Assembly: GCA_964647865.1 (NCBI GenBank)
Contig: CAZYJK010000001.1
Coordinates: 1-49,808 of the forward strand
Direction: 5' to 3'
Length of the DNA: 49,808 nucleotides
Source: an uncultured Veillonellaceae bacterium
GTDB lineage: Bacteria; Bacillota; Negativicutes; UBA1444
This document shows, piece after piece, positions 4,205-48,804 of this stretch; position 1 is the first letter of the stretch; each line of letters begins with the position of its first letter. Both the position numbers and the translations under genes were made by a program. The notes beneath the pieces were generated by a model, which was given only the letters and a program-made list of their open reading frames with translations, had not been told where the DNA came from and ran no database searches.

Positions 4205-5887
4205 ATGATTCGCCGTTTTTTTATTCATTTGGCCCTGATTTTTATTTTTATCGGCGTAAGTTGGGCTGTATTGTTTCAACACAATCTTGTGCATACGGCA
4301 ACGCCAATCACGCCGAAACCGTCGCCGCACCGCTTCGCTATCGCACTGGTACCTCTTGATAGCCGTCCGCCCTGTACCGACTATGTACGGCAACTGGCAG
4401 CAATGGCAGAATTGCATGTGTCACTGCCCCCCGCGGAACTGCTCGACAACTACCGGAAGCCCGGCGATACCACCCGGCTGAGAAACTGGCTGGCGCAAGC
4501 AGCAGTCCGCTCCGCCGCAGCGATTATCTCGGTGGATATGCTGGTGCACGGCGGGTTGTTGGCATCCCGTCAGGCAAACGACCATCACGCCGATGCGGCA
4601 GCAACCATTCAATTGTTGCGGACGATTCACCGTGAGCAACCTCAGGTGCGCCTGTTTGCCTTTAACATCATTCCCCGCCTGTTCATCGCTGACAATCCGC
4701 TCACTGAAAAGTTCAAGCCCCTGATGTCGGACTGGGCGATGTTGCAGGAAACTATCAGCATCTTTGAAAACCCGGCCGATCTGGAAAAGCTGCGCAAGCT
4801 GGAAGCAGAACTGCCGCCGGAACTGATTGAACGTTATCGCAATCTTTACCGGGACAACCGCCAATTGAACAGCCAACTGCTGGAACTGGTCCAGGAAGGG
4901 ACGCTGGCCGGATTGGTGCTCGGGCAGGACGACAGCGCCCCGTTTGGCCTGGGCAACCTGGAACGCCAGTGGCTTGACGCCGTGATCAGCCGTAGCCCCG
5001 TATTGCAAAACAAGGTCTTTGTCACCCGGGGAACCGATGAGGTGGCGCTAAGCTTGTTGGGACAAGTCATCGCAGGTACTGCCTCATACAGGAACAAAGT
5101 GTATGTCCATTATACCGAAGCGACGACCGCAGACCTGATCCTGCCCTACATGCCTGGGCCGCTGTCTCGTACCGTGGCGGAAAAACTGGCCCTAGGCAAC
5201 GCAGAGCAAAGTCGCGATTTTCCAAGCGCCGATTACATCCTGGTCATTCATGCCGGCTCGGCTCGCAGCCGCAGCGCCGATATGGCAAAATCCGCCGCTT
5301 TGATCAAGGATTGGCTGGCCCGCGGCAAGCAAGTCACCCTGGTAGACCTGGCGGCAGACTGGCGGACCGACCAGGCCCTGTTGCCCTTCCTGCAGCAAAA
5401 CGGCGCACCGCTAAACGGTCTGCTCGCCTACGCCGGCTGGAACACCGCCAGCAACTCGATCGGCACGGCCGTGACCCAGGCTGCCATGGTGCTTAGTGGA
5501 AATCGCGCCGGCTCTGCGGACGCTGCCTTGAACCGAGACCTCCAGCGAATTAGTTTCCTGGCGGAACGAATGCTTGACGACTGGTATTATCAAAAGAGCT
5601 TTCGCCCGATTCTCAACGATTCCCTGCAACGGCAGCAAATCAACCCCTATGACTTGCAGTCAGCGCGAAATAAAGTCAATCGGCGGATTGAACTGCAACT
5701 GGCCGGCATCTTTCCCCATTTGGTCGAGCGGCAGTGGCAAAACAGCCTGTTTGCCTTGCCAACGCCTGCACAGGGTGCGTATGTGATTGCCAACTGGCGA
5801 GTCGCGGCCAGCCTGCCGTGGGACCGCACCTTTGAAATACGGCTGGAAACGATAGCCTTGCCGGCAATGCTCGATGAGCGGCGTTAA
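4205..5887 (+). CDS. DUF4127 family protein with an N-terminal membrane anchor
   Basis: 560 aa. It has an N-terminal hydrophobic helix, then ...IALVPLDSRPPCTDYVRQL..., which I recall as the typical DUF4127 opening motif. GGAGG lies upstream of the ATG. Confidence 0.65.
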   Translation: MIRRFFIHLALIFIFIGVSWAVLFQHNLVHTATPITPKPSPHRFAIALVPLDSRPPCTDYVRQLAAMAELHVSLPPAELLDNYRKPGDTTRLRNWLAQAAVRSAAAIISVDMLVHGGLLASRQANDHHADAAATIQLLRTIHREQPQVRLFAFNIIPRLFIADNPLTEKFKPLMSDWAMLQETISIFENPADLEKLRKLEAELPPELIERYRNLYRDNRQLNSQLLELVQEGTLAGLVLGQDDSAPFGLGNLERQWLDAVISRSPVLQNKVFVTRGTDEVALSLLGQVIAGTASYRNKVYVHYTEATTADLILPYMPGPLSRTVAEKLALGNAEQSRDFPSADYILVIHAGSARSRSADMAKSAALIKDWLARGKQVTLVDLAADWRTDQALLPFLQQNGAPLNGLLAYAGWNTASNSIGTAVTQAAMVLSGNRAGSADAALNRDLQRISFLAERMLDDWYYQKSFRPILNDSLQRQQINPYDLQSARNKVNRRIELQLAGIFPHLVERQWQNSLFALPTPAQGAYVIANWRVAASLPWDRTFEIRLETIALPAMLDERR

Positions 5888-8184: not shown

Positions 8185-10263
8185 TTAATCTTCGTCGTCT
8201 TGTTTTTCTTTTTTGTAGGCCTCAATGATCGCATCGGCCTGACGTTGCGGAACTTCGGCATAATTGTTGAACACCATGCTGAAACTGCCGCGCCCCTGCG
8301 TGATCGAACGCAAATCAATCGCATAACGGAACATTTCTGACATCGGCGCCATCGCCCTGACGATCCCCAGTCCGCCACCGATCGGTTCCATGCCTAGAAT
8401 CCGGCCGCGTTTGCCGTTAAGGTCGCCGATGATATCGCCCATATAGGACTCCGGCACCGTAACTTCAACATTGTAAATCGGTTCCAGCAAGATCGGCTTG
8501 GCTTGCACGACGCCTTTACGAATCGCCAATGCGCTGGCCACTTTGAACGACATCTCCGAAGAGTCGACATCGTGGTAAGAACCGTCGGTAAGGGTCACCT
8601 TGATATCAACCAGCGGATAGCCAGCGATAACGCCTTTGGCAAAGGCTTCGCGCACGCCCTTTTCAACGGCCGGGATAAATTGTTTCGGTACGGACCCGCC
8701 AAAAGTCGCATCGACAAATTCAAACGGAGAACCCGAAGGCATCGGATCGAGTTGCAACCAGACATGGCCGTACTGACCATGACCGCCGGTTTGTTTCTTA
8801 TGTTTACCCTCGACTTTGACGCCGGTACGGATCGTTTCGCGATAGGCGATTTTGGGATCGCTCAGTTTGACTTCAACGCCGAATTTACGTTTCAGTCGCT
8901 CGCCCATAATCGCCAGATGCAAATCACCCATGCCGCTGACCAACAACTGGCTGGTCTCCGCATCTTTTTTGAATTTCAACGTGGGATCTTCATCCGCCAA
9001 ACGATGCAAGGCGTTGCCAATTTTGTCTTCGTCGCCCTTATTCTTCGGTTCCAGGCACATCGTAAACATCAAACCGGGGTAAGCGATTGGTGAATACACA
9101 ACCGGCTTGTCCTTGTCGCACAAGGTGTCGCCTGTGCCGGTCTCCGCCATTTTCGCCACAACAACGATATCGCCGCAATGCGCGATAGTCATCGCATCCT
9201 GTGTTTTACCACGCATCGTGAACAAGTTGCCGATCCGTTCCGTCTTGTCTTTGGTCGAATTGTATAGCATGCTGTCCGGTTTCAACGTACCGGAAAAAAC
9301 CCGGATGAAACTGAGCCGTCCGACAAACGGGTCGGCGGTCGTCTTGAACACGAGAGCGGAGAACGGGTCGCCACAAGCTCTGGTCACGGCTTCATCATTT
9401 TTCGGATTGTTGCCGGTTGCCACCGCTTTGTCGGCATTCGGCGCATATTTGGCAATCGCGTTCAATATTTCGACGATTCCGATGTTCTTGGTCGCCGAGC
9501 CGCAAAATACCGGCACAAACCTTGCATCGGCAAGCCCTTTGACCAGGCCGGTGAAAATCTCTTCGTCCGTCAGTTCTTCCCCTTCCAGATACTTGGCAAG
9601 CACATCGTCATCCGCTTCTGCAGCAGCCTCAATCATGCTCATGCGCGCCAGTTCAGCCGCATCCTTCATATCGTCGGGGATTTCCGTTTCCGTTCCTTTG
9701 CCGCCTTTATAAATCACCGCTTTCATGGAAACCAGATCCACAATGCCGGTGAAGCTTTCTTGTGATCCAATCGGCAGTTGCATCGGCACTACACTGCCGC
9801 CGAAAGTTGCTTTCATGCCTTCTACCGCAGCATCGAAATCGGCGTTTTCCCGGTCCATCTTATTTACAAATGCTATGCGCGGTAATTTCTGATCCGCTGC
9901 ATATTTCCAAACTTTTTCGGTTTCCACCTCGACGCCCGATGCAGCGCATAGAACGACCAACGCCGCATCAACGGCCCGCAGGGCTCCTTTTACTTCCGAG
10001 ACGAAATCCGAATATCCCGGGGTATCCACGACATTGATCTTGAAATCTTTCCATTCACACGGAGCCAAAGCCGCACTGATACTGACCTTGCGCTTGACTT
10101 CCTCCGGTTCGAAATCGGTGGTCGCCGTGCCGTCATCAACACGTCCAAGGCGGGTAACCGCTCCGGCATTAAACAGCATAGCTTCGGCCAGAGAAGATTT
10201 TCCGGCGCCACCGTGAGCAACAATGCCCACATTTTTGATCCTGTCACTTTTGTACTCTTTCAA
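8185..10263 (-). CDS. elongation factor G paralog (EF-G2-like translational GTPase), not in a str-operon context
   Basis: 692 aa with EF-G domain order. G1 reads NVGIVAHGGAGKSS, G3 reads VDTPGYSDF, then NKMD, and the C-terminal domain IV/V-like sequence is present. The start is TTG 10263 with GGAGGGG upstream. Confidence 0.88.
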   Translation of the reverse strand: MKEYKSDRIKNVGIVAHGGAGKSSLAEAMLFNAGAVTRLGRVDDGTATTDFEPEEVKRKVSISAALAPCEWKDFKINVVDTPGYSDFVSEVKGALRAVDAALVVLCAASGVEVETEKVWKYAADQKLPRIAFVNKMDRENADFDAAVEGMKATFGGSVVPMQLPIGSQESFTGIVDLVSMKAVIYKGGKGTETEIPDDMKDAAELARMSMIEAAAEADDDVLAKYLEGEELTDEEIFTGLVKGLADARFVPVFCGSATKNIGIVEILNAIAKYAPNADKAVATGNNPKNDEAVTRACGDPFSALVFKTTADPFVGRLSFIRVFSGTLKPDSMLYNSTKDKTERIGNLFTMRGKTQDAMTIAHCGDIVVVAKMAETGTGDTLCDKDKPVVYSPIAYPGLMFTMCLEPKNKGDEDKIGNALHRLADEDPTLKFKKDAETSQLLVSGMGDLHLAIMGERLKRKFGVEVKLSDPKIAYRETIRTGVKVEGKHKKQTGGHGQYGHVWLQLDPMPSGSPFEFVDATFGGSVPKQFIPAVEKGVREAFAKGVIAGYPLVDIKVTLTDGSYHDVDSSEMSFKVASALAIRKGVVQAKPILLEPIYNVEVTVPESYMGDIIGDLNGKRGRILGMEPIGGGLGIVRAMAPMSEMFRYAIDLRSITQGRGSFSMVFNNYAEVPQRQADAIIEAYKKEKQDDED

Positions 10264-10398
10264 ATCGGGCCCCTCCTATTTTTGTCAATTTGCTTTCAGC
10301 GAGTATCGCGATCATATTTTTTATAAATTCTCGCCTTTGCTGATATTTTCCTGCTGATTCTGACGATTCCAAAAAGTATATCTGAAAATATTTGCATG

Positions 10399-14423: not shown

Positions 14424-15221
14424 CTATCTGGTTTGACTCTGCCGCTGACTGCGGATGATCCACACCTCGACCCGTCGGTTTTTTGCGCGGGCCTCATCAT
14501 TGGCATTTGGCGTCACCGGTCGGTATTCGCCATAACCGACAGCACTGAAATTGGCCGGCTTTAATGCAGGTTCCACAGAAAACAGAAACCGCATGAAATT
14601 TACCGCCCGCATGCCGCTCAACTCCCAGTTGGACGGAAACATACCAGTATTGATCGGAACATTGTCGGTATGTCCGGCTACGACGATCTGTTGCGGCAAC
14701 CCGCTAAGCAACTTTGCGATTTCACCGCCCAGTTTTCTGGCTTCCGGAAACAGCTCCGCCTGCCCGGAAGCGAATAATGCCGAATCCTTGATACGAATCC
14801 GCAGTCCGTCTTCCACCAGTTGCGCTTCCAATTCACCGCCCAATCCCTGCAATTTGATATACCGATCCACCGCTTCCTTGACCTGCAGCAACTGAACCGT
14901 TTCCCGGAGCGCGGCCTGGGTTTCACCGATCGATTGCGGCGGACTCATGACTTCCTTGTTCATGCGATTTTCTGAAGGAGGCGGACTGTCAATCGGCACC
15001 AGCTGCGGCGCCGTCTGATTATAAGGCATCAGGGTTGCCGCCCCGCCGCCAAACGCGATATGAAAGGACCTACCCATTTCACCGAGTTTCTTTTCATCGG
15101 TCTTGCCCATCGCAAACAACACGATGAACAACGCCAATAACAATGTCAGCAGGTCCGCATAAGGAACCAGCCAGGTCTCATCTGCATGTTCTTCGTGGTG
15201 CTCCGCATGTTTACGCCCCAT
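14424..15221 (-). CDS. motB: flagellar motor stator protein MotB (OmpA-like C-terminal domain)
   Basis: N-terminus ...ETWLVPYADLLTLLLALFIVLFAM carries the conserved plug/TM region with Asp. The C-terminus ...VAGHTDNVPI...SNWELSGMRA...ARAKNRRVEV is an OmpA/MotB peptidoglycan-binding motif. Confidence 0.9.
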   Translation of the reverse strand: MGRKHAEHHEEHADETWLVPYADLLTLLLALFIVLFAMGKTDEKKLGEMGRSFHIAFGGGAATLMPYNQTAPQLVPIDSPPPSENRMNKEVMSPPQSIGETQAALRETVQLLQVKEAVDRYIKLQGLGGELEAQLVEDGLRIRIKDSALFASGQAELFPEARKLGGEIAKLLSGLPQQIVVAGHTDNVPINTGMFPSNWELSGMRAVNFMRFLFSVEPALKPANFSAVGYGEYRPVTPNANDEARAKNRRVEVWIIRSQRQSQTR

Positions 15222-15227
15222 TGTCGA

Positions 15228-16010
15228 TCAACCTCCCTCGGCCCCTTTGAGGGATTTGCGTTTGGCTGCCGGCAAGAACACGACCAGTTTGGCTTCGATC
15301 GCAACAGGCGAATCGCCGGCCTGCAGGGACAAAATCCCTTCGACCATCATTCGCTTGAGCTCCACTTCTTCTTTGGACATCAGCTTTAATTTATTCGCAA
15401 ACGGATGCCACATGACATAACCGGAAAAAATACCGAACATCGTCGCGACAAAGGCAGCTGCGATTGCATGACCCAGTGCATCGATATCCGCCATGTTGCC
15501 CAGTGCAGCGATCAAACCGATAACCGCGCCAAGCACGCCGAGCGTCGGCGCATACATGCCGGCCTGGGAGAAAATCAGGGCACCGGTCCGGTGCCGTTCT
15601 TCCATCAGTGCGATATCGAGTTCCAAAACATCACGGACAAACGCGCCGTCCATCCCGTCGATAACCATCGTCATCCCGCCGCGCAAAAATGAGTCCTGAA
15701 CCTCATTCAGACTGTTTTCCAGGGCGAGCAGTCCTTCACGGCGCGCCGTCTGAGCAAATCCCACCATGATTTTGACCAAATCCTCCGCGTGCATCAACTG
15801 GGGTTTCTTGAGCAATAATTTGAAATAAACCGGCATTCGCTTGATGATTTCCATCGGAAAAGCATTGAGCAGCGCGCCAAACGTACCGACGAAAATAATC
15901 AGAACCGCCGCCGGATTGATCAACACTTCCGGTGGTGCTCCCTTTAGCGCCATACCAACAACAACGGCCAACAACCCGACAATCATGCCGGCAACTGTCG
16001 AAATCTCCAA
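15228..16010 (-). CDS. motA: flagellar motor stator protein MotA
   Basis: A start at TTG 16010 (GGGGGAG upstream) gives (M)EISTVAGMIVGLLAVVVGMALKG..., which aligns residue for residue with the B. subtilis MotA N-terminus as I recall it. Four TM segments and a MotA/TolQ/ExbB channel region are present. Confidence 0.88.
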   Translation of the reverse strand: MEISTVAGMIVGLLAVVVGMALKGAPPEVLINPAAVLIIFVGTFGALLNAFPMEIIKRMPVYFKLLLKKPQLMHAEDLVKIMVGFAQTARREGLLALENSLNEVQDSFLRGGMTMVIDGMDGAFVRDVLELDIALMEERHRTGALIFSQAGMYAPTLGVLGAVIGLIAALGNMADIDALGHAIAAAFVATMFGIFSGYVMWHPFANKLKLMSKEEVELKRMMVEGILSLQAGDSPVAIEAKLVVFLPAAKRKSLKGAEGG

Positions 16011-16205: not shown

Positions 16206-16859
16206 TTAATGCAGCGTATACGCCAGGATCTCTTCGACCGTATCAACAAGATAAGTTGGCCTGGCCGAAGTCAATTCAGCCCGGCTACCATATCCGTAGC
16301 TGACGGCAAGCGAATCAAGCTGATTGAGCTTGGCGCCGAGGACATCATGCTTACGATCGCCAATCATCAGCACTTCTTCTGCACATGGTACGCCAAGATT
16401 TTTCAGGGCATGCTCAATGACTTCGGCTTTTTCCACCCTTGATCCATCCAGGTTGCTGCCAGCGACAAAGACAAAAGAATCCGCCAACGCAAAATGCTGC
16501 AATATCCGATTCGCAAAAACATGGGGCTTGGAGGTGGCAACTGCCAAAGTTTTTCCAGCAGACCGCAGTTTTTCCAGCAATTCTGGAATTCCTGCATAAA
16601 CAGCATTCTCATAAATTCCGGTCTGGCTGAAGTATTCGCGATAATACTGAACCGCCTGAACCGACTGCGCCTGATCCATGCTGTAAGACTCACGGAAAGA
16701 GGCAGCGAGTGGCGGCCCGATGAAGTGAATCAATTTTTCCAACGCCGGTTCCTCGATTCCCATGCGCCCCAGCGCATACTGCACCGATTTGGTTATCCCC
16801 ACCTGCGGGTCCGTCAGCGTTCCATCCAGGTCAAACAGAATCGTCGAATAGTGTTTCAT
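16206..16859 (-). CDS. HAD-IA family hydrolase (phosphoglycolate phosphatase / 5'-nucleotidase-like)
   Basis: MKHYSTILFDLDGTLTD is HAD motif I. ...VATSKP... is motif II. ...IGDRKHDVLGA... is motif III/IV. Confidence 0.85.
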   Translation of the reverse strand: MKHYSTILFDLDGTLTDPQVGITKSVQYALGRMGIEEPALEKLIHFIGPPLAASFRESYSMDQAQSVQAVQYYREYFSQTGIYENAVYAGIPELLEKLRSAGKTLAVATSKPHVFANRILQHFALADSFVFVAGSNLDGSRVEKAEVIEHALKNLGVPCAEEVLMIGDRKHDVLGAKLNQLDSLAVSYGYGSRAELTSARPTYLVDTVEEILAYTLH

Positions 16860-17570
16860 CTAGCGAAAAATCTCCGGTCGCAAAATATCCGCCACAAGGC
16901 GATAGGGGATCATCATGCGGACGATGCCTTCACTGTAAGGCGCTACTTCATACGGCTGGAAAAACAGCACGATCCCGTCGTCATTAAGATAAAATGCCGA
17001 ATCGGTTCCAATTCCCTTATACTCCCACATCGGCAGGTTTTTTGCGGCGCCTTGTTCACGGACAAACCGGTTCAAACGTTCGGCATAGTTGCTCCCCGGC
17101 CTGAACAAATCAGGCAACAACAATCGTTGCGCACTCACAAGGTCAATCGTATGACCGGTCTGCCAAGTCATGCCGTGCGCTCCGCCGGTGAATTGGTAAA
17201 TCTTTTGCGTAAGGCTGACAATCGTCATATCACTGCGAAACACTTCATAGTCAGCCATGAACACCAGAGCGTTCTTCACAGCTGCCGGCAATTGCGGCAC
17301 CAGTCGGGTTTCATAGGCAACCGGTTCAAACTCGCGCAGGCGTTGCAGAACGACCTGACGGTAGTATTCATTGAAGATCGCCATGTTTTCACCAGGCATT
17401 CCACTATCCAATTGCGGGATTTTCAGCGAAATCAGACTGCCTTGCTGCAACTGCATCGGCACGATAACGACCGGACTCGCCTCAACCGCTTGCAGCCCGC
17501 CGCCGGTCAGCAGCACGAACCCCAACATTATCAGACAGACATTTCTATTCCAGACGCTTCCCTGTTTCAT
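16860..17570 (-). CDS. secreted DUF3298/DUF4163 domain protein
   Basis: It has a signal peptide and ...IYQFTGGAHGMTWQTGHTIDL..., the GGAHG core typical of DUF3298. It directly abuts the HAD gene. Confidence 0.7.
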   Translation of the reverse strand: MKQGSVWNRNVCLIMLGFVLLTGGGLQAVEASPVVIVPMQLQQGSLISLKIPQLDSGMPGENMAIFNEYYRQVVLQRLREFEPVAYETRLVPQLPAAVKNALVFMADYEVFRSDMTIVSLTQKIYQFTGGAHGMTWQTGHTIDLVSAQRLLLPDLFRPGSNYAERLNRFVREQGAAKNLPMWEYKGIGTDSAFYLNDDGIVLFFQPYEVAPYSEGIVRMMIPYRLVADILRPEIFR

Positions 17571-17595
17571 TCCGCTTCTCCTTTCGTTCGTCCGG

Positions 17596-17624
17596 TTGTT
17601 TCCGGATAAAATCTAAGGTACAAT
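17596..17624 (+). promoter_or_regulatory. candidate sigma-70 promoter (TTGTTT-N17-TACAAT) for the 17664 gene
   Basis: The hexamers lie at 17596-17601 and 17619-17624 with a 17-nt spacer, about 40 nt upstream of the ATG. Confidence 0.45.
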
Positions 17625-17663
17625 AGTAATCAAGAATGTTTCGCCACAAGGAGGTGCATTGTA

Positions 17664-17966
17664 ATGGCAAAACTTGAAATCACGATTACTCCGGCAGCGC
17701 GACAATATATCGCCGAGCATTCCGATTCGGTCCAATTGCTTGAAACCCGCAACTCAATGATCGGTTGATGCAAAGTCAACGTAGGCCCGTCCGTGCGACT
17801 GGGCAAACCACCGGTAACTGACCTGGACAGGTACAACCATATCGTCGTTGATACAATTAATGTCTATCTGCCAAAATCTTTGTACATACCGGGAAATTTC
17901 AGCATTTCACTGTGGCGGTTCCTCTGGATGAAAAGCCTGACAATCGACGGTTGGAAACTGGTCTAA
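17664..17966 (+). CDS. candidate small selenoprotein (in-frame TGA at 17766-17768 read as Sec); CC/UC-motif family-like, 100 aa
   Basis: AAGGAGG (17648-17654) sits 9 nt before ATG 17664. There are 34 sense codons, then TGA-TGC, then 65 further stop-free in-frame codons to TAA 17964-17966. Conceptual product: MAKLEITITPAARQYIAEHSDSVQLLETRNSMIG-U-CKVNVGPSVRLGKPPVTDLDRYNHIVVDTINVYLPKSLYIPGNFSISLWRFLWMKSLTIDGWKLV. Confidence 0.6.
17785..17804 (+). promoter_or_regulatory. SECIS-like hairpin downstream of the in-frame UGA
   Basis: GCCC-GUC / GAC-(U bulge)-GGGC with apical loop CGUGC, starting 16 nt after the UGA. The bulged U and the GU-containing loop recall the E. coli fdhF SECIS architecture. 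Confidence 0.4.
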
Positions 17967-17971
17967 CCGGC

Positions 17972-18757
17972 TCACAGCTCATCGAGTAAAAGCGAGAAAA
18001 AAGATAATTTTCCGGTTGCAGCCTGCTCATCCTTCACCTGGAGGATGAGCTTTTCATTGCCGGCGAGCACTTTTACCCCGCCGCAATTCTGGTGCAATTC
18101 AACCATAAATGCATCTAGCGCAGCCAAGACCGCCCGGTCCAGTTTCGGCACTTCTGCCAGATTAAAGCGGATACCCGGCCGCTCTGAAGCGCAGAACGCT
18201 TTGACTTCTATGGCTAATGCAGCCAGACTGGCAAGCGACAGGTTCGGATGAATCACGACATGCAAAGATCCGTCAGCGACTTTTTCCATATCAAATGGGG
18301 AGTGAACTTCTTCGACCAGCTTGCTCTCCTCGGTTTCACCAAAATGCGCCCGGCGGTGGCGGCGAACCTTTTCACGAAATTCACCGGTGGAAACCGTCTG
18401 CTTCAGAACCGAGGAAACCGTCTCCAACACCTGCTGTTCCGTAAACGGTTTCAGCAAAAAATTCCGCGCGCCACGTTGCAACGCTTCCAGAACGACCGCT
18501 TTTTCTTCCACCGCACTGATCACGACAAACCGCGCATCCGGATACGGCGCGAGTATTTTTGACATGGCCGTCAAACCATTCATGGTCGGCATGCCCAGGT
18601 CCATTGTTACGAGATCAGGCTTGCAACGGACATATTCCAGGTATCCTTTGACACCGGTGTTTGCTTCGCCGACAATTTCATGCCCCGCCGTTTCCAGGAT
18701 ATCGTGCAACATTCGCCGGATCGTCGGCGAATCGTCGACTATCAGAATTCGCGCCAC
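17972..18757 (-). CDS. response regulator: CheY-like receiver fused to a STAS-like (anti-sigma-antagonist-like) C-terminal domain
   Basis: A start at GTG 18757 gives VARILIVDDSPTIRRMLHDILE...DLVTMDLGMPTMNG...LLKPF, a receiver with acidic pocket, phospho-Asp and Lys. The C-terminal ~110 aa reads ...LHVVIHPNLSLASLAALAIEVKAF...IRFNLAEVPKLDRAVLAAL...GGVKVLAGNEKL, a STAS-like pattern without the DSSG serine. Confidence 0.7.
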   Translation of the reverse strand: MARILIVDDSPTIRRMLHDILETAGHEIVGEANTGVKGYLEYVRCKPDLVTMDLGMPTMNGLTAMSKILAPYPDARFVVISAVEEKAVVLEALQRGARNFLLKPFTEQQVLETVSSVLKQTVSTGEFREKVRRHRRAHFGETEESKLVEEVHSPFDMEKVADGSLHVVIHPNLSLASLAALAIEVKAFCASERPGIRFNLAEVPKLDRAVLAALDAFMVELHQNCGGVKVLAGNEKLILQVKDEQAATGKLSFFSLLLDEL

Positions 18758-29966: not shown

Positions 29967-30797
29967 CTAACGTCGAAAATTCCATGCTTTGACGCCATAT
30001 TTATGTTTTACCAGTTCGTCGATGCAGCTGAGTTCGGATTCCGTCCACACATCCGCTTGGAAACGCAAGTCGCATTGCGCTTCAAATCCAGCCCGTATGG
30101 CAACCGCCACATCCGCCGGATCGATCGGCCTGCCGAGGACTTCGTCAAGTCCGATTGCCTTTTCCGCCAGTTCCAGCGCCAGCATTTCGTCGCGGTCAGT
30201 TTTCGCTGACTGCAATACCGCAGCCATCCGTTCCGGCTGCAGAGACAACAAGATGGAACCATGCTGCAACAAAACGCCCTCGCGGCGAACCTGCGCACTG
30301 CCCACCAGTTTTTTACCGGCAACAGTGATCTCATAATGCGACGGCGCGTCAAAACAGGCGGCCGAAGCATGCGACCGGGGCTTACCTCTTTGCGACTCCG
30401 GCGACTTCATCTCGGCAGCTATCCCCAGTCTCGCCAATCCGGCCATGATCGCCCGGCTAAAAAAACGATACGATTCGGTTACCGTGGTTGGGATGTAGGG
30501 TTCATTTTCTCTGACCACCAGACTGTACGTCAGTTCCTGTTCATGCAGTACCGCCCTTCCACCGGTCAATCGTCGGACAATGTCAATGCCAAGCTTTCGA
30601 CAAACTTCCTGGTCGATTTCCGTGGCAAGTCTTTGGAAATAGCCGATGCTGACTGCCGGTGGATTCCAGCCATAAAAGCGCAATGTAGGCCGGCCTGTTT
30701 CACTTTGGCAGCCAATCAGCATTGCCTCATCGGCCGCCATGTTCCAGGCGGCCGATGAGGGTTGGTCCTGTAGTAATCGCCAAGTCGGCATCGTCAT
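29967..30797 (-). CDS. lipM: lipoate-protein ligase family protein, LipM-like octanoyltransferase
   Basis: ...WRLLQDQPSSAAWNMAADEAML...LRFYGWNPPAVSIGYFQ...VRRLTGGRAVLHEQELTYSLVV...ACFDAPSHYEI.V.GKKLVGSAQ parallels B. subtilis LipM, including the Cys and Lys region. It is the last gene of the gcv operon. Confidence 0.75.
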   Translation of the reverse strand: MTMPTWRLLQDQPSSAAWNMAADEAMLIGCQSETGRPTLRFYGWNPPAVSIGYFQRLATEIDQEVCRKLGIDIVRRLTGGRAVLHEQELTYSLVVRENEPYIPTTVTESYRFFSRAIMAGLARLGIAAEMKSPESQRGKPRSHASAACFDAPSHYEITVAGKKLVGSAQVRREGVLLQHGSILLSLQPERMAAVLQSAKTDRDEMLALELAEKAIGLDEVLGRPIDPADVAVAIRAGFEAQCDLRFQADVWTESELSCIDELVKHKYGVKAWNFRR

Positions 30798-30799
30798 TC

Positions 30800-32260
30800 T
30801 CAGGCGGGCTTCCAGCGCAGATTCGGTTTTCTCGCTGCAGCCGCTTCATCCAGCCGGCCTACAACCGTTGTCGTCGGGGCCTGAGTAATCAACGCAGGAT
30901 TTTCCTCGGCCTCTCGCGCTATCTGCCGCATTATCCCGACAAAAGCATCCAGGGTTTCTTTGCTTTCCGTTTCGGTCGGTTCAATCATCAATGCCTCCGC
31001 AACAATCAGCGGGAAATAGATGGTTGGCGGATGAACCCCGTAATCTAGCAATCGTTTGGCGATATCCAGCGTCCGGATCCCTTTGGCATTTTGTTTTTGC
31101 GATGTCAGAACGCATTCATGCATGCAGTGTCTGGCAAAAGGCGCATGGTAAACATCGCGCAGCCGGGCCAGGCAATAATTTGCGTTCAGCACTGCATCTT
31201 CGCTGACTTGACGTAGCCCTGCCGCACCCATGGTCAAAATATAGGCATAGGCTCGGATCAGAATGCCAAAATTGCCGTAAAAAGAATGCATCCGGCCAAT
31301 CGACAACGGCCTGTCTTCGGCGAAACAGTAAATCCCGTCCGCCGTTTGCGTTACAACGGGAATCGGCAAGAACGGCTCGAGAATCTTCTTGACGCCAACC
31401 GGTCCGGCGCCGGGTCCACCGCCGCCATGCGGCGTACTGAAAGTTTTGTGCAGGTTGAAATGGATCACGTCAAATCCCATATCGCCCGGCCTGGTCAGGC
31501 CCATTATCGCATTGGCATTGGCTCCGTCGTAATATACCAGACCACCGGCGGCGTGAACGATTTCAGTCACTGCACAGATGTTTTTTTCAAACAGCCCCAA
31601 CGTACTGGGATTGGTCAGCATCAGCGCCGCTGTGTCCGAATTTACGGCAGCACGCAAAGCATCCAGGTCGATAGCGCCATCGGGATGCGATTTGATTTCG
31701 ACGGTTTCCATGCCGCAGACACTTACCGTAGCCGGATTCGTTCCATGCGCCGAATCCGGTACGATCACGCGGATGCGGTTTTCCTCACCCCGATTGCGAT
31801 GATAAGCCCGAATCAGTTTCAACCCGGTCAATTCGCCCTGCGCACCGGCAACCGGCTGCAACGTCACCGCATCCATGCCAGAAATTTCTGCAAGCATCTG
31901 TTGCAATTCAAACATCAGCTGCAACGCGCCCTGCGTGTCACGAAAATCCTCCAACGGGTGCAGCCCGGACCAACCCGGCAAGGCAGCAACATCTTCGTTA
32001 ACTTTCGGATTGTATTTCATCGTACAGGATCCTAACGGGTAAAATCCCGAATCGACGCCAAAAGTCCGTTGCGACAGTTCTGTGAAGTGACGGACGAGGT
32101 CAAGCTGACTGACCTCCGGGAGTGCAGCAGGCTCGCTACGCAGATAGGCGGCGGGAATCAGTTTTTCGATCTGCTGCTCCGGCACGTCCGATTGCGGCAA
32201 ATCAAGCGCCAGTCGCCCCGGTCGGCTCAATTCAAAAATCAAAGCGGCGGAACTTCTCAT
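30800..32260 (-). CDS. gcvPB: glycine dehydrogenase (aminomethyl-transferring) subunit 2
   Basis: ...IFELSRPGR...[13 protein letters not shown]...[19 protein letters not shown]... includes the PLP-Lys region. Length 486 aa. Confidence 0.95.
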
Positions 32261-33609
32261 ACCGACACCTCTTTCAGCAATCCTGCCAGTAAATCGATTT
32301 CTTCGCGCGTCCGTTTTTCTGTCACGGCCGTCAACATACAGCCAGCAAGTTCGGGGTAATAGCAGCCAAGATCAAGTCCGGCAACCACACCGGCCTCCCG
32401 TAGCTCTTCATTTATTTCGCGCGGCGATAACGGGCAACGAACGACAAATTCATTGAAAACCGGCTGGTCAAAGACTGGGCTGAAACCAGCAATCTTCGCG
32501 ATTGTCTGCCTCGCATAATGTGCTTTCTGCAGGCAGAGCTCCGCGACCTGACGCAAGCCCTGCTTGCCCAGAGCGGATAGATACACCGCGACCGCCAGCG
32601 AACACAAGGCTTCATTGGAGCAAATGTTTGACGTTGCCTTATCTCTGCGGATATGTTGCTCACGAGCCTGAATGGTCAGCACGAAACCGCGCGTCCCGTC
32701 CTGGTCCACAGTCTGTCCTACGATGCGGCCCGGCGTGCGGCGCAGCCATTTGTCGCGCGTCGCCAGAAACCCGATGTATGGGCCGCCAAATGACAACGGC
32801 AGACCCAGCGACTGCGCTTCACCTATCACAATATCCGCGCCCAGGGCGCCCGGCGCTTCCAACACACCCAGGGAAATCGGATTCACTGCGGTAATCAACA
32901 GCGCGCCCTGTTTTTGCGCGATTTCGCCAATACCCCGCAAATCTTCCAGACAACCGAAAAAATTCGGCGTCTGACAGATAACGGCAGCCGTGTTGTCGGT
33001 AACTAGCCTGGAGAGTTCCGCCAGGTTACTTACGCCGTCAAGATAATCAACCGTCAGGATTTTCATCCCACGATCCCGTGCGTAGGTTGCCAAAACGTCG
33101 CGCCAATGCGGATGCACCGTCCGTGAAACCAGCACCTCGCTTCGACCGGTAATCCCGCAGGCCATCATGGCCGCCTCAGCCATCGCCGTCGCCCCGTCAT
33201 AAAGTGAAGTCACCGCCATTTCCATGCCGGTCAACAGACAAATCAGGCTTTGATACTCCCAGAGGGCCTGCAGATATCCCTGAGCAATCTCCGGTTGATA
33301 CTGGGTGTAGGCGGTCAGGAACTCACTGCGACCGACAAGATGCCCGACCACGCTGGGAATATAATGGTCATAAGCACCTGCACCAAGAAAACATAGCGTC
33401 TGTTCATAGTCCCGGTCTTTCATCGCCAGTGTCTGCAAGTGTTCCCGCAGCTCCATCTCCGATAACGGCGGCGGCAGACGAAGCGGACGGCGCAAGCGCA
33501 CTTCCTGCGGAATATCGGCAAACAGTTCTTCTACTCCGGCAACACCGATCGTTTCCAACATCGCAAGCCGGTCTTGCGGGGTGTGCGGCAGATAACTCCA
33601 GCGGGTCAC
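32257..33609 (-). CDS. gcvPA: glycine dehydrogenase (aminomethyl-transferring) subunit 1
   Basis: ...[18 protein letters not shown]...[15 protein letters not shown]...[13 protein letters not shown]... matches GcvPA. I chose GTG 33609, just after the gcvH stop; the track start at 33654 would overlap gcvH. Confidence 0.92.
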
Positions 33610-33610
33610 C

Positions 33611-34006
33611 TTAGTGGCCCCCTTTCGCCACCTGATCCGCGTAGGCCGTGTCATCCATCAACTCTGCCAGTTGGCTGCCATCGGACATTTCAATCACGGC
33701 AATCCAGCCTTCGCCATAAGGAGCTTGATTGATTCTTTCCGGCGCATCGTTTAATCCGTCATTAACCGCAACTATTTTTCCGCTGACCGGTGAAAAGATG
33801 TCCGAAACAGCCTTTACCGACTCGACGACTGAAAACCGTTTTCCGGCAACGACTGTCGCTCCCGGCTCCGGCAACTCGACAAACACGATGTCGCCCAACT
33901 GCGACTGCGCATAATCAGAAATCCCCACGACAGCATTGTTGCCTTCGACCCGGACCCATTCATGTTCTTTGGAATACTTCAAATTGTTTGGAATCAGCAT
34001 TTTCAA
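33611..34006 (-). CDS. gcvH: glycine cleavage system protein H
   Basis: ...[40 protein letters not shown]......[13 protein letters not shown] carries the lipoyl-Lys in the ESVK motif. Confidence 0.95.
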
Positions 34007-35103
34007 ATCCTCCTTCGATAAAATGGTCTGGCGATAATTTTTGCAGCAACCGGTTTTTCCCTGATTTCAATGGCAATTTCCGTCCCTGAGGGTCCAAGAT
34101 TGCGATCCACCAACGCCATCCCCAGGTTTTCCCCCAGGCTGGGTGCCACCGAACCTGAAGTCACAAAGCCTGCGACCTTCCCCTCATGAAGCACGGGGTA
34201 TCCGGCTCGCGCCACGCCGCGCTCCGTCATGGCGAACCCGATCAGTTTCCTGCCCCGCCCGGCTTCGCGCTGTTCCAGCAAAGCCTGCTTGCCGTTGAAA
34301 TCGGTTTTGTCAAAAACGACAAACTTGCCTAGCCCCGCTTCCAGCGGCGTAATATCGGCTGAAAGCTCATGTCCGTACAGCGGCATCGCCGCTTCAAAAC
34401 GCAAGGTATCACGACAACCAAGTCCAGCGGGTTGCAGACCGAATTCCGCACCGGCAACCAGGAGCGCATCCCATATCCTTGTCACTTCGCAAGGATGGCA
34501 ATAAATCTCGAATCCGTCCTCTCCGGTGTATCCTGTTCGCGACACTAGCACCGTCGCACCGGTGATATTCCAACGCGGCCAAAACTCATAATAGGCCAAT
34601 TCTGAGACATCCGCAGCAGAAATCTTTTCCAGGATTGCGGCGGCGAGCGGCCCCTGCAAGGCAATTTCCGCCGTTTCATCCGATTCATCAATCAGCCGCA
34701 CTGCAAAATCTGCCACGTTCTGATTCATCCAGGCAAAGTCCTTGTCTTTGTTCGAAGCATTGACAACCAGCCAAAACTCATCGTTCGCAATGCGATAAAT
34801 CAGGATATCATCCACCGTACCGCCATTTTGATAGCACATCGGCGAATAACGAACCTTGCCGGGCTGCAGGCTGGCGACGTCATTCGTCACCAACTTTTGC
34901 ATATACGCCTCGGCATCCTTGCCGACCACCCGGATTTCGCCCATATGCGAAACATCGAACAAACCGGCCCGCTGCCGTACCGCCCGATGCTCCTCCAATA
35001 TCCCTGCATACTGAACAGGTAACCACCAACCGTTGAAATCGACCATCCGGGCGCCTAGCGCCACATGGGAGTCATACAGTGCCGTCTTGCGCGGTTCAGT
35101 CAC
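34003..35103 (-). CDS. gcvT: glycine cleavage system aminomethyltransferase T
   Basis: ...[51 protein letters not shown]... matches GcvT. The start is GTG 35103 with GAGGAGGGG upstream. Confidence 0.95.
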
Positions 35104-35130: not shown

Positions 35131-35327
35131 AAAAAGACAGGAAAAAATAAATCTTCCCTGTCTCTGTCTTGTCTACCTGAGAGATTTGCCCTGACGGGCT
35201 CCCCATCGGTGACGCCGTCCGACCTTGGCGGCGTTCTCTCCAGAGTCCGGTCCGATTGCGGTTCTTTTGCCTGAGAGTTTACCAGGTTAGCCTGCCCCTT
35301 CGGCGCCGCTGAAGCGGTCTCTTCCAC
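35131..35327 (-). promoter_or_regulatory. tandem glycine riboswitch (two aptamers) with a terminator expression platform, leader of the gcv operon
   Basis: Aptamer 1 on the minus strand: GGAAGAGACC...GGCGCCGAAGGGGCAGG...AAACUCUCAGGCAAAAGAACCGC. Aptamer 2: ACUCUGGAGAGAACGCC...GUCACCGAUGGGGAGC...AAUCUCUCAGGUAGACAAGACAGAG. Next comes the hairpin GACAGG...CCUGUC (35136-35162) plus UUUUU. Its 5' arm is shared with the end of aptamer 2. Confidence 0.9.
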
Positions 35328-35397
35328 AATCATCATTCCCGGTATTAAGTTTTCATTAGAATTAATTCGGCAGCCCTGACAAAAATCCTGCTTAATT

Positions 35398-38405: not shown

Positions 38406-39623
38406 TTAAGACAACAATACGAACAGGCCTTGCGCCCACTCCAGCGCCTGACGATAAAGCTTTGCCACATCCTGTTCGGGGATGCCGATCTTTTGCGCCA
38501 TCGCCGAAAACTCTTCCCACTCGGCCTTTTCATAATGTCGTGCCATGATGTGCAATTGGCCCAAATCGTTATCTCCCCGCAGCAACGCGACGACGATATC
38601 GTCTTCCAGCGGCAATTCGCGCAACACATCGGTCATCGGACGGTCCAGCATCGCATCGACCAAAGAGAACAAGCCGACCAGAAAAGCCTGGTTGCTCCGC
38701 TTGCTCCAGCCCATCTGAAACGCCAACAGCTCACCAAAACGCGCCCTGATCAAAGAAAGAACAACAATTTCATCAGGTTTCTCCTGGGCAATATTCTGTA
38801 GCGCCAGCAAAGAAATCCATTTGAGAATTTCCTTACGCCCCAGCATGACCAGCGCCTGACGCACGGACGAGATCTTGTTGCGTACGCCAAAGAAAGAAGA
38901 GTTGATAAACTTGAGCAATTTGAAGGATAACGCGACATCGCGCCGGAAAATCTGTTCCATTTTGTCAAAGTCGATTTCCATCCGGCTGGCTTCCCGCAAC
39001 ATATTAAGATAGTTTACGGTATAACCCGGGATATCCCGTCCGGTAAAGATTTCCGGCCGACCGAAGAAATAACCTTGAAAATACTGATAGCCGAAATCCT
39101 TGGCCTGCTTGAAATCAAAATAACTTTCGACTTTTTCCGCCAGCAGGGCTACCCCCATCGGCGCCAACTGTGCGGCAATCGCTTTGCGTTCGGCTTCTTT
39201 GGTCTTTATGAAATCTACTTTGACCATATCTACCAGTTTGAGGATTTCCGCTGACGCCTTATGATAGACAAAATCATCCAGCACAACCATGTAGCCTTTT
39301 TCTTTCAAATGGCGGCAGGCGGCCACCACATCCGGGTCCGCGTCCACCGTCTCAGAAAACTCGACCGCCAATACTTTTGCTGGCAAGATCGTCATCATCT
39401 CCTGCTTGACCAAGCGCGGCGTGAAGTTTACGAAAGCCTTCTTGCCACCCGCCAAATCATCGACAATCTTGAGAAAAAAGCTGCTGTTGATGACATCTGC
39501 AGTGGCTTGATCCCGGTCCGAACCGGGGAAAAAGTCGCCGGTCCCATTGCGGAATAAAAGTTCATAGCCGATGACCTTCTTGTCCACGTTAAATATCGGT
39601 TGTCTCGCAACATGAACTTCCAT
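38406..39623 (-). CDS. EAL plus HDOD domain protein (PdeH/YuxH-like c-di-GMP phosphodiesterase architecture)
   Basis: MEVHVARQPIFNVDKKVIGYELLFR (an ELL variant of EAL), ...FVNF..., ...EFSE..., ...LDDFVYH..., ...KVDF..., ...LAEKVES...QGYFFGRP. The C-terminal ~200 aa is HDOD-like. I prefer ATG 39623 because the GGAGGG lies inside the first five track codons. Confidence 0.8.
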   Translation of the reverse strand: MEVHVARQPIFNVDKKVIGYELLFRNGTGDFFPGSDRDQATADVINSSFFLKIVDDLAGGKKAFVNFTPRLVKQEMMTILPAKVLAVEFSETVDADPDVVAACRHLKEKGYMVVLDDFVYHKASAEILKLVDMVKVDFIKTKEAERKAIAAQLAPMGVALLAEKVESYFDFKQAKDFGYQYFQGYFFGRPEIFTGRDIPGYTVNYLNMLREASRMEIDFDKMEQIFRRDVALSFKLLKFINSSFFGVRNKISSVRQALVMLGRKEILKWISLLALQNIAQEKPDEIVVLSLIRARFGELLAFQMGWSKRSNQAFLVGLFSLVDAMLDRPMTDVLRELPLEDDIVVALLRGDNDLGQLHIMARHYEKAEWEEFSAMAQKIGIPEQDVAKLYRQALEWAQGLFVLLS

Positions 39624-39826
39624 TTCCAATCCCTCCATATATGTGCATCATGGATAGCTGGGTGAAATCTTTTATTGTTCTGATAATTTCTTCCTGACGT
39701 TATTTCTTCGCGCTACCTGATCTTATTTCCTGCTTTATTGCCGCAGACAGCGCATATTTCTTTTTTTCTCCAGCCACTCCAGGCGTCACTGCTCTTTCAG
39801 TAAACCGATCACCCCTTGACTTACAA

Positions 39827-40990
39827 TTACAATAGCAGCCGCTCGCAGGTCTCCATATCTGTCCCCAGCAAATCCAGCGCCGCCGGTACCAACTTCGGCA
39901 TCACAAAAGCTTTTTTCTGTTGCCAGGAAAAATAATCGGCAACATGCACCGCCGCGACCACTTCCCGGTTCAAGACCGCTTCATTCAACGGATCATGGTG
40001 GAACATGGCAGCCTCGACGATCGGATGCGGCAAGCTCCACCAATTCAGCAAAAACCCGCCGACCTCATCATGGGATATTCCCATCAAGCTGCGTTCGGTA
40101 TCGCGGAACGTCGTCGCCTTGTTTTGAAACACCGACCGCGCCACCCCGGCATAAGGCTGCGCATAATCCTTCAACAGCAGGATGCGGCCGATGTCATGGA
40201 GCAGACCCGCTGTCGCTTCGCTATCCTTCATCGTGCGACCGAGGCAACGCTCAAAGATGGTGTGGGTCATCCGATTGACCCGGTCGGCATGGTCCCACAA
40301 AACGTCTTTGGAAAAGAATCCGCCATGCATCCCGTCGAGTTGTTTAAGAACCGTCAGTCCCAATACGACCGTCTTAAGGTTGGTCAGCCCCATATAGACG
40401 ATTGCCTGCCGGACCGAGCCGGTGCTCATGTTATAATACACCGAATTCGCGACCTGCAATAATTTTGCCGTCACCGTCTGGTCCTGCTCCACGACGTGGG
40501 CGATTTCTTCCACACCGGCCTCGCTCTCGATCAGCGCGCTAACACGCGAGTAAAGCTCCGGCACCGTCGGCAGATCCCGCAGATTGTTAAAAACCTCCAG
40601 CAGCTGTCGGCGTGAAAACAACTCTCCCAAATGCAACAACTTTTCCACTTCAGCCAATAGCTTGGCATTATCCCATGGTTTTAAAATATACATCCGGGCC
40701 GAACCGTCACGCAGGCAATTGATGACATCCTTGCCCTCGGCAAAACCGCTCAGAATCGCCCGCATGGTCGTCGGATACAGCGATCGGACCTGCTTTAGGA
40801 GCTGGTGTCCGTCCATTCCCGGCATTCGCATATCACTTATCACCAAATCGATTTTTTCATCGGCCAAAAGCGCCAACGCAGCTTCGCCGCCGCTTGCCGA
40901 AAACACCTGATGTCCGGCCGGAACAAAGATCCGTTCCAAGGCATGCACTACATTTTCTTCGTCATCGACCAGCAATAACTTTTTTCCCAT
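39827..40990 (-). CDS. response regulator with a CheY receiver and an HDOD output domain
   Basis: The receiver reads MGKKLLLVDDEENVVHALERIF...DLVISDMRMPGMDG...ILKPW. An HDOD-like region follows: ...LPTVPELYSRV...LLQVANSVYY...LLHDIGRILL... Confidence 0.85.
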   Translation of the reverse strand: MGKKLLLVDDEENVVHALERIFVPAGHQVFSASGGEAALALLADEKIDLVISDMRMPGMDGHQLLKQVRSLYPTTMRAILSGFAEGKDVINCLRDGSARMYILKPWDNAKLLAEVEKLLHLGELFSRRQLLEVFNNLRDLPTVPELYSRVSALIESEAGVEEIAHVVEQDQTVTAKLLQVANSVYYNMSTGSVRQAIVYMGLTNLKTVVLGLTVLKQLDGMHGGFFSKDVLWDHADRVNRMTHTIFERCLGRTMKDSEATAGLLHDIGRILLLKDYAQPYAGVARSVFQNKATTFRDTERSLMGISHDEVGGFLLNWWSLPHPIVEAAMFHHDPLNEAVLNREVVAAVHVADYFSWQQKKAFVMPKLVPAALDLLGTDMETCERLLL

Positions 40991-41029
40991 ATCAAAACCA
41001 CCCTTGCTTTTGCTGAATCAATCGCACGC

Positions 41030-41503
41030 TCAGTTTCTGGTGGAAGGGTCGGGCCGCTCTACCCGGCCCACGGCTTCCAGCGGCGCAACGCCGGAGTACA
41101 GCACGTCGGTGAACGCGGCAAAATAGCGGTCCGTCGTAGAAATATTCACCGCAATCAACGTTTCCACCATCCGCCTGGTCAATTCGCCGCCTTCGACATC
41201 GATACTGGTCTTATAGCGGATTTCCCCATCAGTCATATCCAGCTCAAAGTTGCCGATATTCAAGCCATAGTTGATCCGCGCCAATAATTCGGCCACGATC
41301 TGGCGTTGCTCTTCAGCTACCCGAATCGGCACAATCGAATAAAAGACAAAAATCTCGTGATCCTCATTCGCCTGACCAAAACACTCATAACGGGCGCTTT
41401 TGCCGGAAAAACTGAATCGGATCGCCAACTCACCGGGAATTTCCTCGTAACGCCAATCATCTTCCTGCAAAAAAGCGACCACCGAATCAAACACCCGTCC
41501 CAT
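41030..41503 (-). CDS. YbjN domain protein (putative sensory-transduction / chaperone-like family)
   Basis: 157 aa: MGRVFDSVVAFLQEDDWRYEEI...FSFSGKSARYECFGQANEDHEIFVFYSI...LARINYGLNIGNFELDMTDGEIRYKTS is the YbjN pattern. Confidence 0.7.
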   Translation of the reverse strand: MGRVFDSVVAFLQEDDWRYEEIPGELAIRFSFSGKSARYECFGQANEDHEIFVFYSIVPIRVAEEQRQIVAELLARINYGLNIGNFELDMTDGEIRYKTSIDVEGGELTRRMVETLIAVNISTTDRYFAAFTDVLYSGVAPLEAVGRVERPDPSTRN

Positions 41504-41540
41504 CGCCTTACCTCCCGCTGTTCATACCCGTTCGCGTCTT

Positions 41541-41569
41541 ATTCTATCATTTCGCCCAGGCCCCTGCAA
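41541..41569 (-). promoter_or_regulatory. sigma-70-type promoter for the ybjN / RR-HDOD / EAL-HDOD unit (TTGCAG-N17-TGaTAGAAT)
   Basis: The minus strand reads TTGCAG (41564-41569), a 17-nt spacer, then TAGAAT (41541-41546) with an extended -10 TG, about 38 nt upstream of ATG 41503. Confidence 0.55.
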
Positions 41570-41655
41570 CGCGCCCTTTTGCCCGGATAGCTATATCGAC
41601 CGGCAAGCGGGATATGGTAAAATGAAACGGCAATATCTTGGAGAGGGTCGTTTTC

Positions 41656-45025: not shown

Positions 45026-45037
45026 AAAAAGCCGCCA

Positions 45038-46393: not shown

Positions 46394-46416
46394 TTCGCAA
46401 TTATTTTGGGCATCGG

Positions 46417-48228: not shown

Positions 48229-48253
48229 AGGCAAGCCCCTTTCAGCGTTCTCT

Positions 48254-48775: not shown

Positions 48776-48804
48776 GCGAACGCCTCCTGTAACTTTTTCA
48801 GGTT

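Follow-up and report, generated by a model that had tools for sequence, protein, structure and literature searches.

Positions 17664 to 17966 on the forward strand of a 49,808-nucleotide stretch of DNA from an uncultured Veillonellaceae bacterium (the whole analysed stretch is called the window throughout) are, with high confidence, best explained as a whole as one monocistronic gene which encodes a selenoprotein of 100 residues belonging to the CC/Se motif family. The TGA found in frame at codon 35 most likely encodes selenocysteine (Sec, one-letter code U), as judged from the comparison with homologous genes described below. The gene is a genuine and hitherto unannotated member of a family of predicted selenoproteins which has already been catalogued. 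The elements on which this reading is built are the following.

17664 to 17966, plus strand: predicted coding sequence of a CC/Se-family selenoprotein, 100 codons and TAA, based on translation, the match to NF041239, selection and homologues.
17766 to 17768, plus strand: in-frame TGA, predicted Sec codon 35, kept in six orthologs.
17769 to 17771, plus strand: TGC, encoding Cys36, which forms the U-C dyad together with Sec, invariant in seven U-C sequences.
17785 to 17804, plus strand: predicted selenocysteine insertion sequence (SECIS) hairpin, with the 5' arm at 17785-17791, the loop CGUGC at 17792-17796, the 3' arm at 17797-17804 and a bulged U at 17800.

Upon translation the frame starts with ATG at 17664, extends over 34 codons in all to the TGA, which is directly followed by TGC, and shows 65 sense codons after the TGA before it ends with TAA at 17964-17966. 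This is the arrangement given in the initial annotation, which was made from the letters of the window and a mechanical list of its open reading frames (ORFs). That list splits the gene into a 34-amino acid ORF and a 57-amino acid ORF starting from GTG 17793, and it offers, as had been remarked at the time, an antisense ORF of 68 amino acids (17630-17836) and not the full gene. All statements on the sequence itself were confirmed. The long stop-free run after the TGA had in addition been used as an argument against chance, and this part did not stand: in the six reading frames of the window there are 126 stretches of 90 or more codons which are bridged by a TGA. As the sequence features alone amount to no more than chance, the case rests on the comparison with other sequences.

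Assignment to a family was obtained with the product in which U was written as C. A single NCBIfam model was matched, NF041239, with 67.7 bits as compared to a cutoff of 40 and an E value of 7e-19. Residues 5-97 of the 100 residues of the protein align with positions 2-91 of the 91 positions of the profile, and the alignment crosses the TGA uninterrupted. The family, which had been named in the initial annotation as roughly 'CC/Se motif family (seleno)protein', exists; it is found as NF041239 ('Moor_selen_rel') in NCBIfam and as PF28096 (CC_Se_fam) in Pfam, and it is already catalogued with no assigned function. Precomputed PF28096 matches are borne by the post-TGA fragments of orthologs. A profile search yielded 328 cluster representatives with E <= 1e-3. 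The relatives among these with a length of 85-115 amino acids, 136 in number, were run against NCBIfam, and every one of them (136/136) matched NF041239. With its 100 amino acids, the GPSVRLGKPP segment and the C-terminal DGWKLV, the window protein has the properties of this family of small single-domain proteins (~90-105 amino acids), and its Sec35-Cys36 dyad occupies the conserved loop position.

A search for homologues which align Cys or TGA with position 35 and are conserved on both sides of it had been proposed as a check. Such homologues were found: the Sec-form genes number 15 and fall into three deep clades, and there are 7 Cys forms besides. At this place all of the six orthologs from Negativicutes (L001-L003, L005-L007), which have 76-95% identity, read SMIG-TGA-TGC-K, and the synteny of the window is retained in them wherever the flanks could be compared; in a scan of genome collections the closest genome was a Sporomusaceae metagenome-assembled genome with the gene at 93% identity. 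A second Bacillota clade with ~40% identity (L004, L008, L017-L020, L024) has Cys-TGA (C-U), and so has one paralog of Anaeroselena agilis (L012 15149-15454). Cys forms with a CC dyad are L009-L011, L021, L022, two further A. agilis paralogs, and most database entries. In the alignment one column contains the TGA of codon 35, the second Cys of the CC forms and, in the C-U forms, the Sec, so that UGA is aligned with Cys in homologues, with conservation on both sides. The distance from Sec or the second Cys to the Pro of GPSVRLG is seven codons in 14 of 14 Sec-form and 5 of 5 Cys-form genes of the clades with 94-100 amino acids; in the A. agilis paralogs it is 8 codons for the two Cys forms and 11 codons for the Sec form. 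On the basis of this alignment, the clade of the window represents a register-shifted variant, Gly34-Sec35-Cys36, which is newly described here. One C-U copy (L024 4001-4287) meets stop codons ~25 codons past the hairpin and is either a pseudogene with a frameshift or the product of an assembly error.

The effect of selection was followed in a codon-by-codon comparison of four sequences, for which values from divergent pairs are quoted. Codons 1-34 gave proportions of synonymous differences (pS) of 0.66-0.92 versus proportions of nonsynonymous differences (pN) of 0.07-0.20, and codons 49-100 gave pS of 0.67-0.87 versus pN of 0.10-0.16. By this measure both sides of the TGA are under purifying selection. 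In codons 36-48 of these pairs the synonymous divergence falls from ~0.8 to ~0.2.

The initial annotation had pointed to a hairpin with a bulged U and a GU-containing loop at 17785-17804, 16 nt after the UGA. This hairpin was recovered as part of the minimum free energy (MFE) fold, with the stem GCCCGUC / GAC-U-GGGC. For bacterial SECIS elements (bSECIS), a 2026 review of prokaryotic selenoproteomes (PMC13188914) lists a loop of 3-9 nt, an upper stem of 4-16 bp, a distance of 16-37 nt from UGA to loop, and an MFE <= -7.5 kcal/mol, together with a G at the first or second position of the loop, with G or U as the usual next base. The window hairpin agrees with each of these: it has a loop of 5 nt, 7 bp plus the bulged U, G-U at loop positions 2-3, and 23 nt between UGA and loop, and its MFE ranges from -8.6 kcal/mol for the bare 20-nt element (orthologs with identical hairpin sequence) to -10.0 kcal/mol for the window sequence with flanks.

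The stretch GGCCCGTCCGTGCGACTGGGCAAACCACC is base-for-base identical in a 40%-identical homologue from an AT-rich genome. All Sec forms (15/15) use the codons GGC CCG TCC GTG (C/A)GA CTG GGC; the exceptions are TAC as the first codon in A. agilis and four substitutions of a single base, namely one CCC, one TTG and two CCG, and through one of these four a G-C pair becomes G-U. In the seven Cys forms the peptide is unchanged but its codons vary at nearly every wobble position, and the closing GGC is kept in none of them. As far as can be seen from these genes, the hairpin is under selection at the RNA level only where a TGA is present. This SECIS frozen across clades, with the Cys forms as a control, is added by the present analysis, and its near nucleotide identity in deep clades is a clean case, occurring in nature, of a protein motif which is constrained by an RNA element. 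In one Cys form with CC (L009 55-339) the hairpin is almost intact, only the closing GGC being changed to GGT, which looks like the fossil of a recent conversion of Sec to Cys. By analogy to the established pathway, SelB carrying Sec-tRNA(Sec) would bind to the hairpin while the ribosome is positioned on UGA-35, and Sec would be inserted at codon 35 to give the motif Gly34-Sec35-Cys36.

A number of observations weigh against a selenoprotein at this locus and have to be set against the above. None of the genes selA, selB, selC and selD occurs within the 49.8-kb window, in which ARAGORN found tRNA-Pro only and no tRNA-Sec, and no selABCD genes were present in the flanks of the relatives examined. 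Sec decoding by the organism is hence a conclusion from conservation only. A region of 71 nt containing the hairpin folds no better than shuffled sequences (z = -0.37). Compensatory covariation in the hairpin is almost nil, the support being its invariance and the one G-C to G-U change. In Rfam no SECIS family matched the region in either gathering or permissive mode, bacterial SECIS elements not being modelled in this database. The CC/Se family itself is found in Table 1 of PMC13188914 among the predicted selenoprotein families which are not experimentally verified.

Three other explanations of the TGA have been considered. It might be read as Trp, Gly or Cys, by an alternative code or by read-through independent of a SECIS, to yield a selenium-free protein. 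The translation of one homologue by the Joint Genome Institute (JGI) has W at this place, and for this genome no Sec machinery can be demonstrated, yet such a decoding is improbable. Among the ordinary stops of the window TGA is the most frequent, and it terminates 15 of the 32 family-supported genes, at positions which fit the family profiles, and an alternative genetic code is excluded because of this. In relatives the column aligns with Cys and not with Trp or Gly, and the bSECIS-like hairpin is selectively conserved only alongside TGA. Even less credit can be given to two small adjacent genes, one for a 34-amino acid peptide (17664-17768) and one for a 57-amino acid protein from GTG 17793. 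Metagenome annotations do list the two ORFs, and PF28096 is matched by the 57-amino acid fragment on its own, but full-length Cys-form relatives are one polypeptide over both parts, and the match to NF041239 is continuous over residues 5-97. The protein sequence of codons 36-43, which separate the TGA from the GTG, is conserved (CKVNVGPS / VPVNFGPS), and GTG 17793 falls within the conserved hairpin's loop and lacks a good Shine-Dalgarno sequence. That the gene is a decaying pseudogene, derived from a Cys-form CC gene by a nonsense mutation of TGC/TGT to TGA, is hardly credible, for although the TGA is one base away from a Cys codon, gene callers read it as a stop and report fragments only, and the distant copy L024 is truly disrupted past its TGA, the TGA is retained in six orthologs with synonymous sites near saturation, the 65 downstream codons still show pN ~0.10-0.16 versus pS 0.67-0.87, and this column of the alignment has TGA in two further deep clades as well.

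The predicted selenoprotein gene is also accompanied by signals on its upstream side and, less clearly, on its downstream side.

17596 to 17601, plus strand: -35-like hexamer TTGTTT, read directly; TTGT.T in 7/7 sequences, with a fixed spacing of 17 nt to the -10 hexamer.
17619 to 17624, plus strand: -10 hexamer TACAAT, read directly; TA[C/A/G]AAT in 7/7 sequences.
17625 to 17647, plus strand: conserved 5' leader AGTAATCAAGAATGTTTCGCCAC between the -10 hexamer and the Shine-Dalgarno sequence, almost invariant in seven sequences.
17648 to 17654, plus strand: Shine-Dalgarno sequence AAGGAGG, 9 nt before the ATG; (A)GGAGG in orthologs.
18025 to 18050, plus strand: tentative terminator-like hairpin followed by TTTT, with an 11-bp stem, 59 nt past the TAA.

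The Shine-Dalgarno sequence was present at the place where it had been noted originally. For the proposed TTGTTT-N17-TACAAT promoter, the hexamers, the spacer of 17 nt and the conservation hold; a promoter scan does not call the pair, and the -35 hexamer agrees weakly with the consensus (3 of 6 positions). Promoter hexamers, spacing, Shine-Dalgarno sequence, TGA and hairpin are all conserved in the six orthologs. In spite of saturation at coding wobble sites, the leader at 17625-17647 is near-constant in all seven sequences, and this invariance suggests a regulatory site; when it was examined for operator symmetry no convincing inverted repeat was found. The terminator-like hairpin is located inside the 3' end of the convergent ORF for a response regulator, and shuffled sequences yield about one such site, which makes it weak evidence.

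In public protein databases the closest relatives of the window protein are fragments only, mostly post-TGA pieces of 55-57 amino acids. Standard gene callers produce 'hypothetical proteins' of 34 and 57 amino acids or render the TGA as Trp, and many database fragments result from this. The 94-amino acid entry P0004, a JGI translation, carries W where the DNA, which was checked, has TGA. Sec forms are stored as fragments of 55-63 amino acids (P0001-P0003, P0008, P0010-P0013, P0016, and ~12 more), and this fragmenting in protein collections is a systematic annotation artefact. Three further entries (P0072, P0127, P0161) also have W at the dyad column, which may be the same artefact as in P0004. 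The organism is, according to an exact sequence look-up, represented solely by metagenome contigs from sewage and wastewater. Correct annotation of the gene adds a selenoprotein to an uncultured, sewage-abundant lineage of Negativicutes and implies that this lineage decodes Sec.

With regard to function, the most likely role of the dyad is that of a soft ligand which binds a thiophilic metal or a small cluster; this is meant as a hypothesis and not as a finding. It is proposed because in a structural model the dyad is placed at the tip of the first-ligand loop of the fold of A-type iron-sulfur (Fe-S) carriers, and the C-terminal CGC ligands of these carriers are missing. AlphaFold was applied to P0005, a Cys-form relative, with the alignment of 136 sequences, and gave a confident model with a predicted local distance difference test score (pLDDT) of 88.7 and a predicted TM-score (pTM) of 0.74; from 8 sequences only, the pLDDT was 60.6. 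The best matches of this model in the PDB were SufA (2d2a), IscA (1r94 and 1x0g), AQ_1857 (1nwb), and a protein of 'putative Fe-S biosynthesis' (2p2e), with probabilities of 0.6-1.0 and TM-scores of ~0.5-0.57. The dyad is found at the tip of a beta-hairpin, between strands 26-29 and 32-35 of the P0005 model. The Pfam family Fe-S_biosyn (PF01521) gave weak matches in the window protein (12.2 bits versus a cutoff of 26.3) and in 13 of the 136 relatives, and no other Pfam family recurs comparably among these sequences. When aligned with hhalign, the gCCg of the family falls on the GCSG ligand loop of IscA with a pairwise E value of 6e-4, the A-type sequences having been entered by hand. From these data the protein is inferred to have an IscA/SufA/HesB-like (A-type carrier) fold, as a relative and not as a member, being below the Pfam cutoff and lacking the C-terminal CGC. 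This link to the A-type fold is a contribution of the present analysis. In the mechanism suggested by the model, the U-C dyad would lie at the tip of the beta-hairpin which bears the first ligand Cys in A-type carriers, and as a soft ligand would bind a small cluster or the ion of a thiophilic metal, probably across a dimer.

The genomic context which bears on this proposal comes from A. agilis. There, three CC/Se paralogs are found within 20 kb (L012, JAUOZS010000001, 494568-514885), at 4209-4517, 10001-10318 and 15149-15454, two of them CC forms and one a C-U Sec form. Two of these paralogs each directly follow a pair of genes for an ArsR/SmtB regulator and a P1B-ATPase of the Zn/Cd/Pb/Hg class, and the third adjoins a ZitB-like exporter of the cation diffusion facilitator type. 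This context suggests a ligand for thiophilic metals or clusters. The same 20-kb metal island also contains genes for a DsbD-like protein and an EfeU-like permease. At three loci of the 94-amino acid clade (L009 350-1165, L010 3157-3972, L017 1000-2861) genes for NlpA/MetQ-type lipoproteins or ABC transporters adjoin the CC/Se gene; these may be a recurring link to methionine-type import, the cases being too few to judge.

Several points speak against the dyad being a soft metal or cluster ligand. The model is that of P0005, which is 40% identical to the window protein, and not of the window protein itself. The hhalign probability was 29%, and a profile search of PDB sequences gave no matches, so that the link to IscA/SufA exists only at the level of fold and profile-profile comparison. 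The window gene is an isolated one, with a divergent PdaC/DUF3298 gene on one side, a convergent gene for a response regulator on the other and no metal genes as neighbours, and the metal-efflux association was found in A. agilis only. A conserved operon was considered and rejected, the neighbours in the 94-amino acid clade being heterogeneous (NTP-transferase, MatE, beta-eliminating lyase, NlpA/ABC, nitroreductase, CstA).

The main alternative, though a less likely one, is that the U-C dyad forms a vicinal selenenylsulfide/selenolthiol redox centre, and that the protein is a small oxidoreductase or a Se/S relay. A redox role is assumed for the majority of the uncharacterised selenoproteins of bacteria (PMC13188914), some of the C-U forms read G-C-U-G (L012c) or L-C-U-G (L020), and the contexts outside A. 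agilis are without metal genes. On the other hand, the protein has neither a thioredoxin-like fold nor a CxxC/UxxC motif, the fold match is to A-type carriers which bind Fe-S clusters or metals, and metal efflux is the sole repeated gene neighbourhood found; the two roles are not mutually exclusive.

Returning to the proposed soft ligand, the observations can be combined, tentatively, into one picture. The family would be a stripped-down IscA/SufA fold without CGC, in which Zn, Cd, Pb, Hg or a small cluster is bound across a dimer by a vicinal dyad of Cys and Sec in the former Cys35 loop, and the window protein would be a selenium-based metal buffer or chaperone. Sec would also be ancestral, with one SECIS frozen in the GPSVRLG codons across clades of less than 40% identity, and with repeated Sec-to-Cys conversions leaving fossil hairpins such as that in L009. 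The current understanding is not overturned by these results, and a specialist on selenoproteins would not be surprised by them; the fold link together with the ArsR / P1B-ATPase / CC-Se arrangement of A. agilis makes a soft-metal or cluster ligand a concrete and testable hypothesis.

Some other features of the window may be mentioned. A glycine riboswitch (Rfam RF00504, 64.7 bits, 35249-35336, minus strand) is located directly upstream of a gcvT-gcvH-gcvPA-gcvPB-lipoate ligase operon (29967-35103, minus strand), which is an ordinary arrangement. An ORF of 371 amino acids (16494-17609, plus strand) is wholly antisense to the Pfam-supported HAD (16206-16859) and PdaC/DUF3298 (16860-17570) genes and is almost certainly spurious. 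A dense cluster for cyclic di-GMP signalling at 38406-46393 encodes an EAL-HDOD protein, a response-regulator phosphodiesterase, a PAS-GGDEF-EAL and a PAS-GGDEF protein. After this cluster comes an AcsV-like corrinoid activase (46417-48315), in keeping with an acetogen-like way of life as a member of the Sporomusaceae. ORFs on the minus strand at 45038-49785, which by their size might have been selA, selB or selD, are a GGDEF protein, the AcsV-like corrinoid activase and an unassigned ORF. A second selenoprotein candidate upstream of the AcsV-like gene, which came from a scan for TGA read-through, was discarded, as the extension is an out-of-frame tail of the neighbouring GAF gene.

Among known systems, the A-type carriers IscA, SufA and ErpA (PF01521) provide the best structural matches, and the dyad aligns with their GCSG loop, which contains the first cluster ligand, Cys35 of IscA. 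Their C-terminal C-G-C ligands are absent in the window protein, which ends with GWKLV and has no Fe-S assembly genes in its context. Vicinal Cys/Sec pairs are known from the C-terminal G-C-U-G of thioredoxin reductase, where they form a redox couple, and as the C-terminal Cys-Cys of MerA, which binds Hg(II). These dyads are an analogy only, as they share neither sequence nor fold kinship with the window protein and are located on flexible C-terminal tails of large flavoenzymes. The HesB-like selenoprotein (TIGR01911), which is catalogued separately from the CC/Se family (PMC13188914, Table 1), has in common with the window protein the small size, the fold class, and Sec in the N-terminal ligand loop. 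It has the motif U-x-G-P in contrast to U-C-K-V in the window protein, which places the latter outside the HesB-like group, and TIGR01911 matched neither the window protein at E <= 1 nor any of the 136 relatives at E <= 0.01.

The hairpin resembles the bSECIS of the E. coli fdhF type in being a coding-region hairpin just past the UGA with a 5-nt loop, G-U at positions 2-3 and a bulged U. It is unrelated to the fdhF element in sequence and has its bulged U on the 3' arm. In the A. agilis Sec paralog the conserved motif is farther from the UGA, and a different, stronger hairpin is located nearer to it. With the CC/Se family the window protein shares the length of about 100 amino acids, the helix-strand N-terminus, the dyad loop, the P-x-V-x-x-G-x-P motif and the C-terminal GWKL. 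For the representative of this family the motif CxxU is given in PMC13188914. The other sampled Sec forms have C-U, whereas in the clade of the window the first Cys of the dyad is replaced by Gly and the partner Cys follows the Sec, yielding G-U-C.

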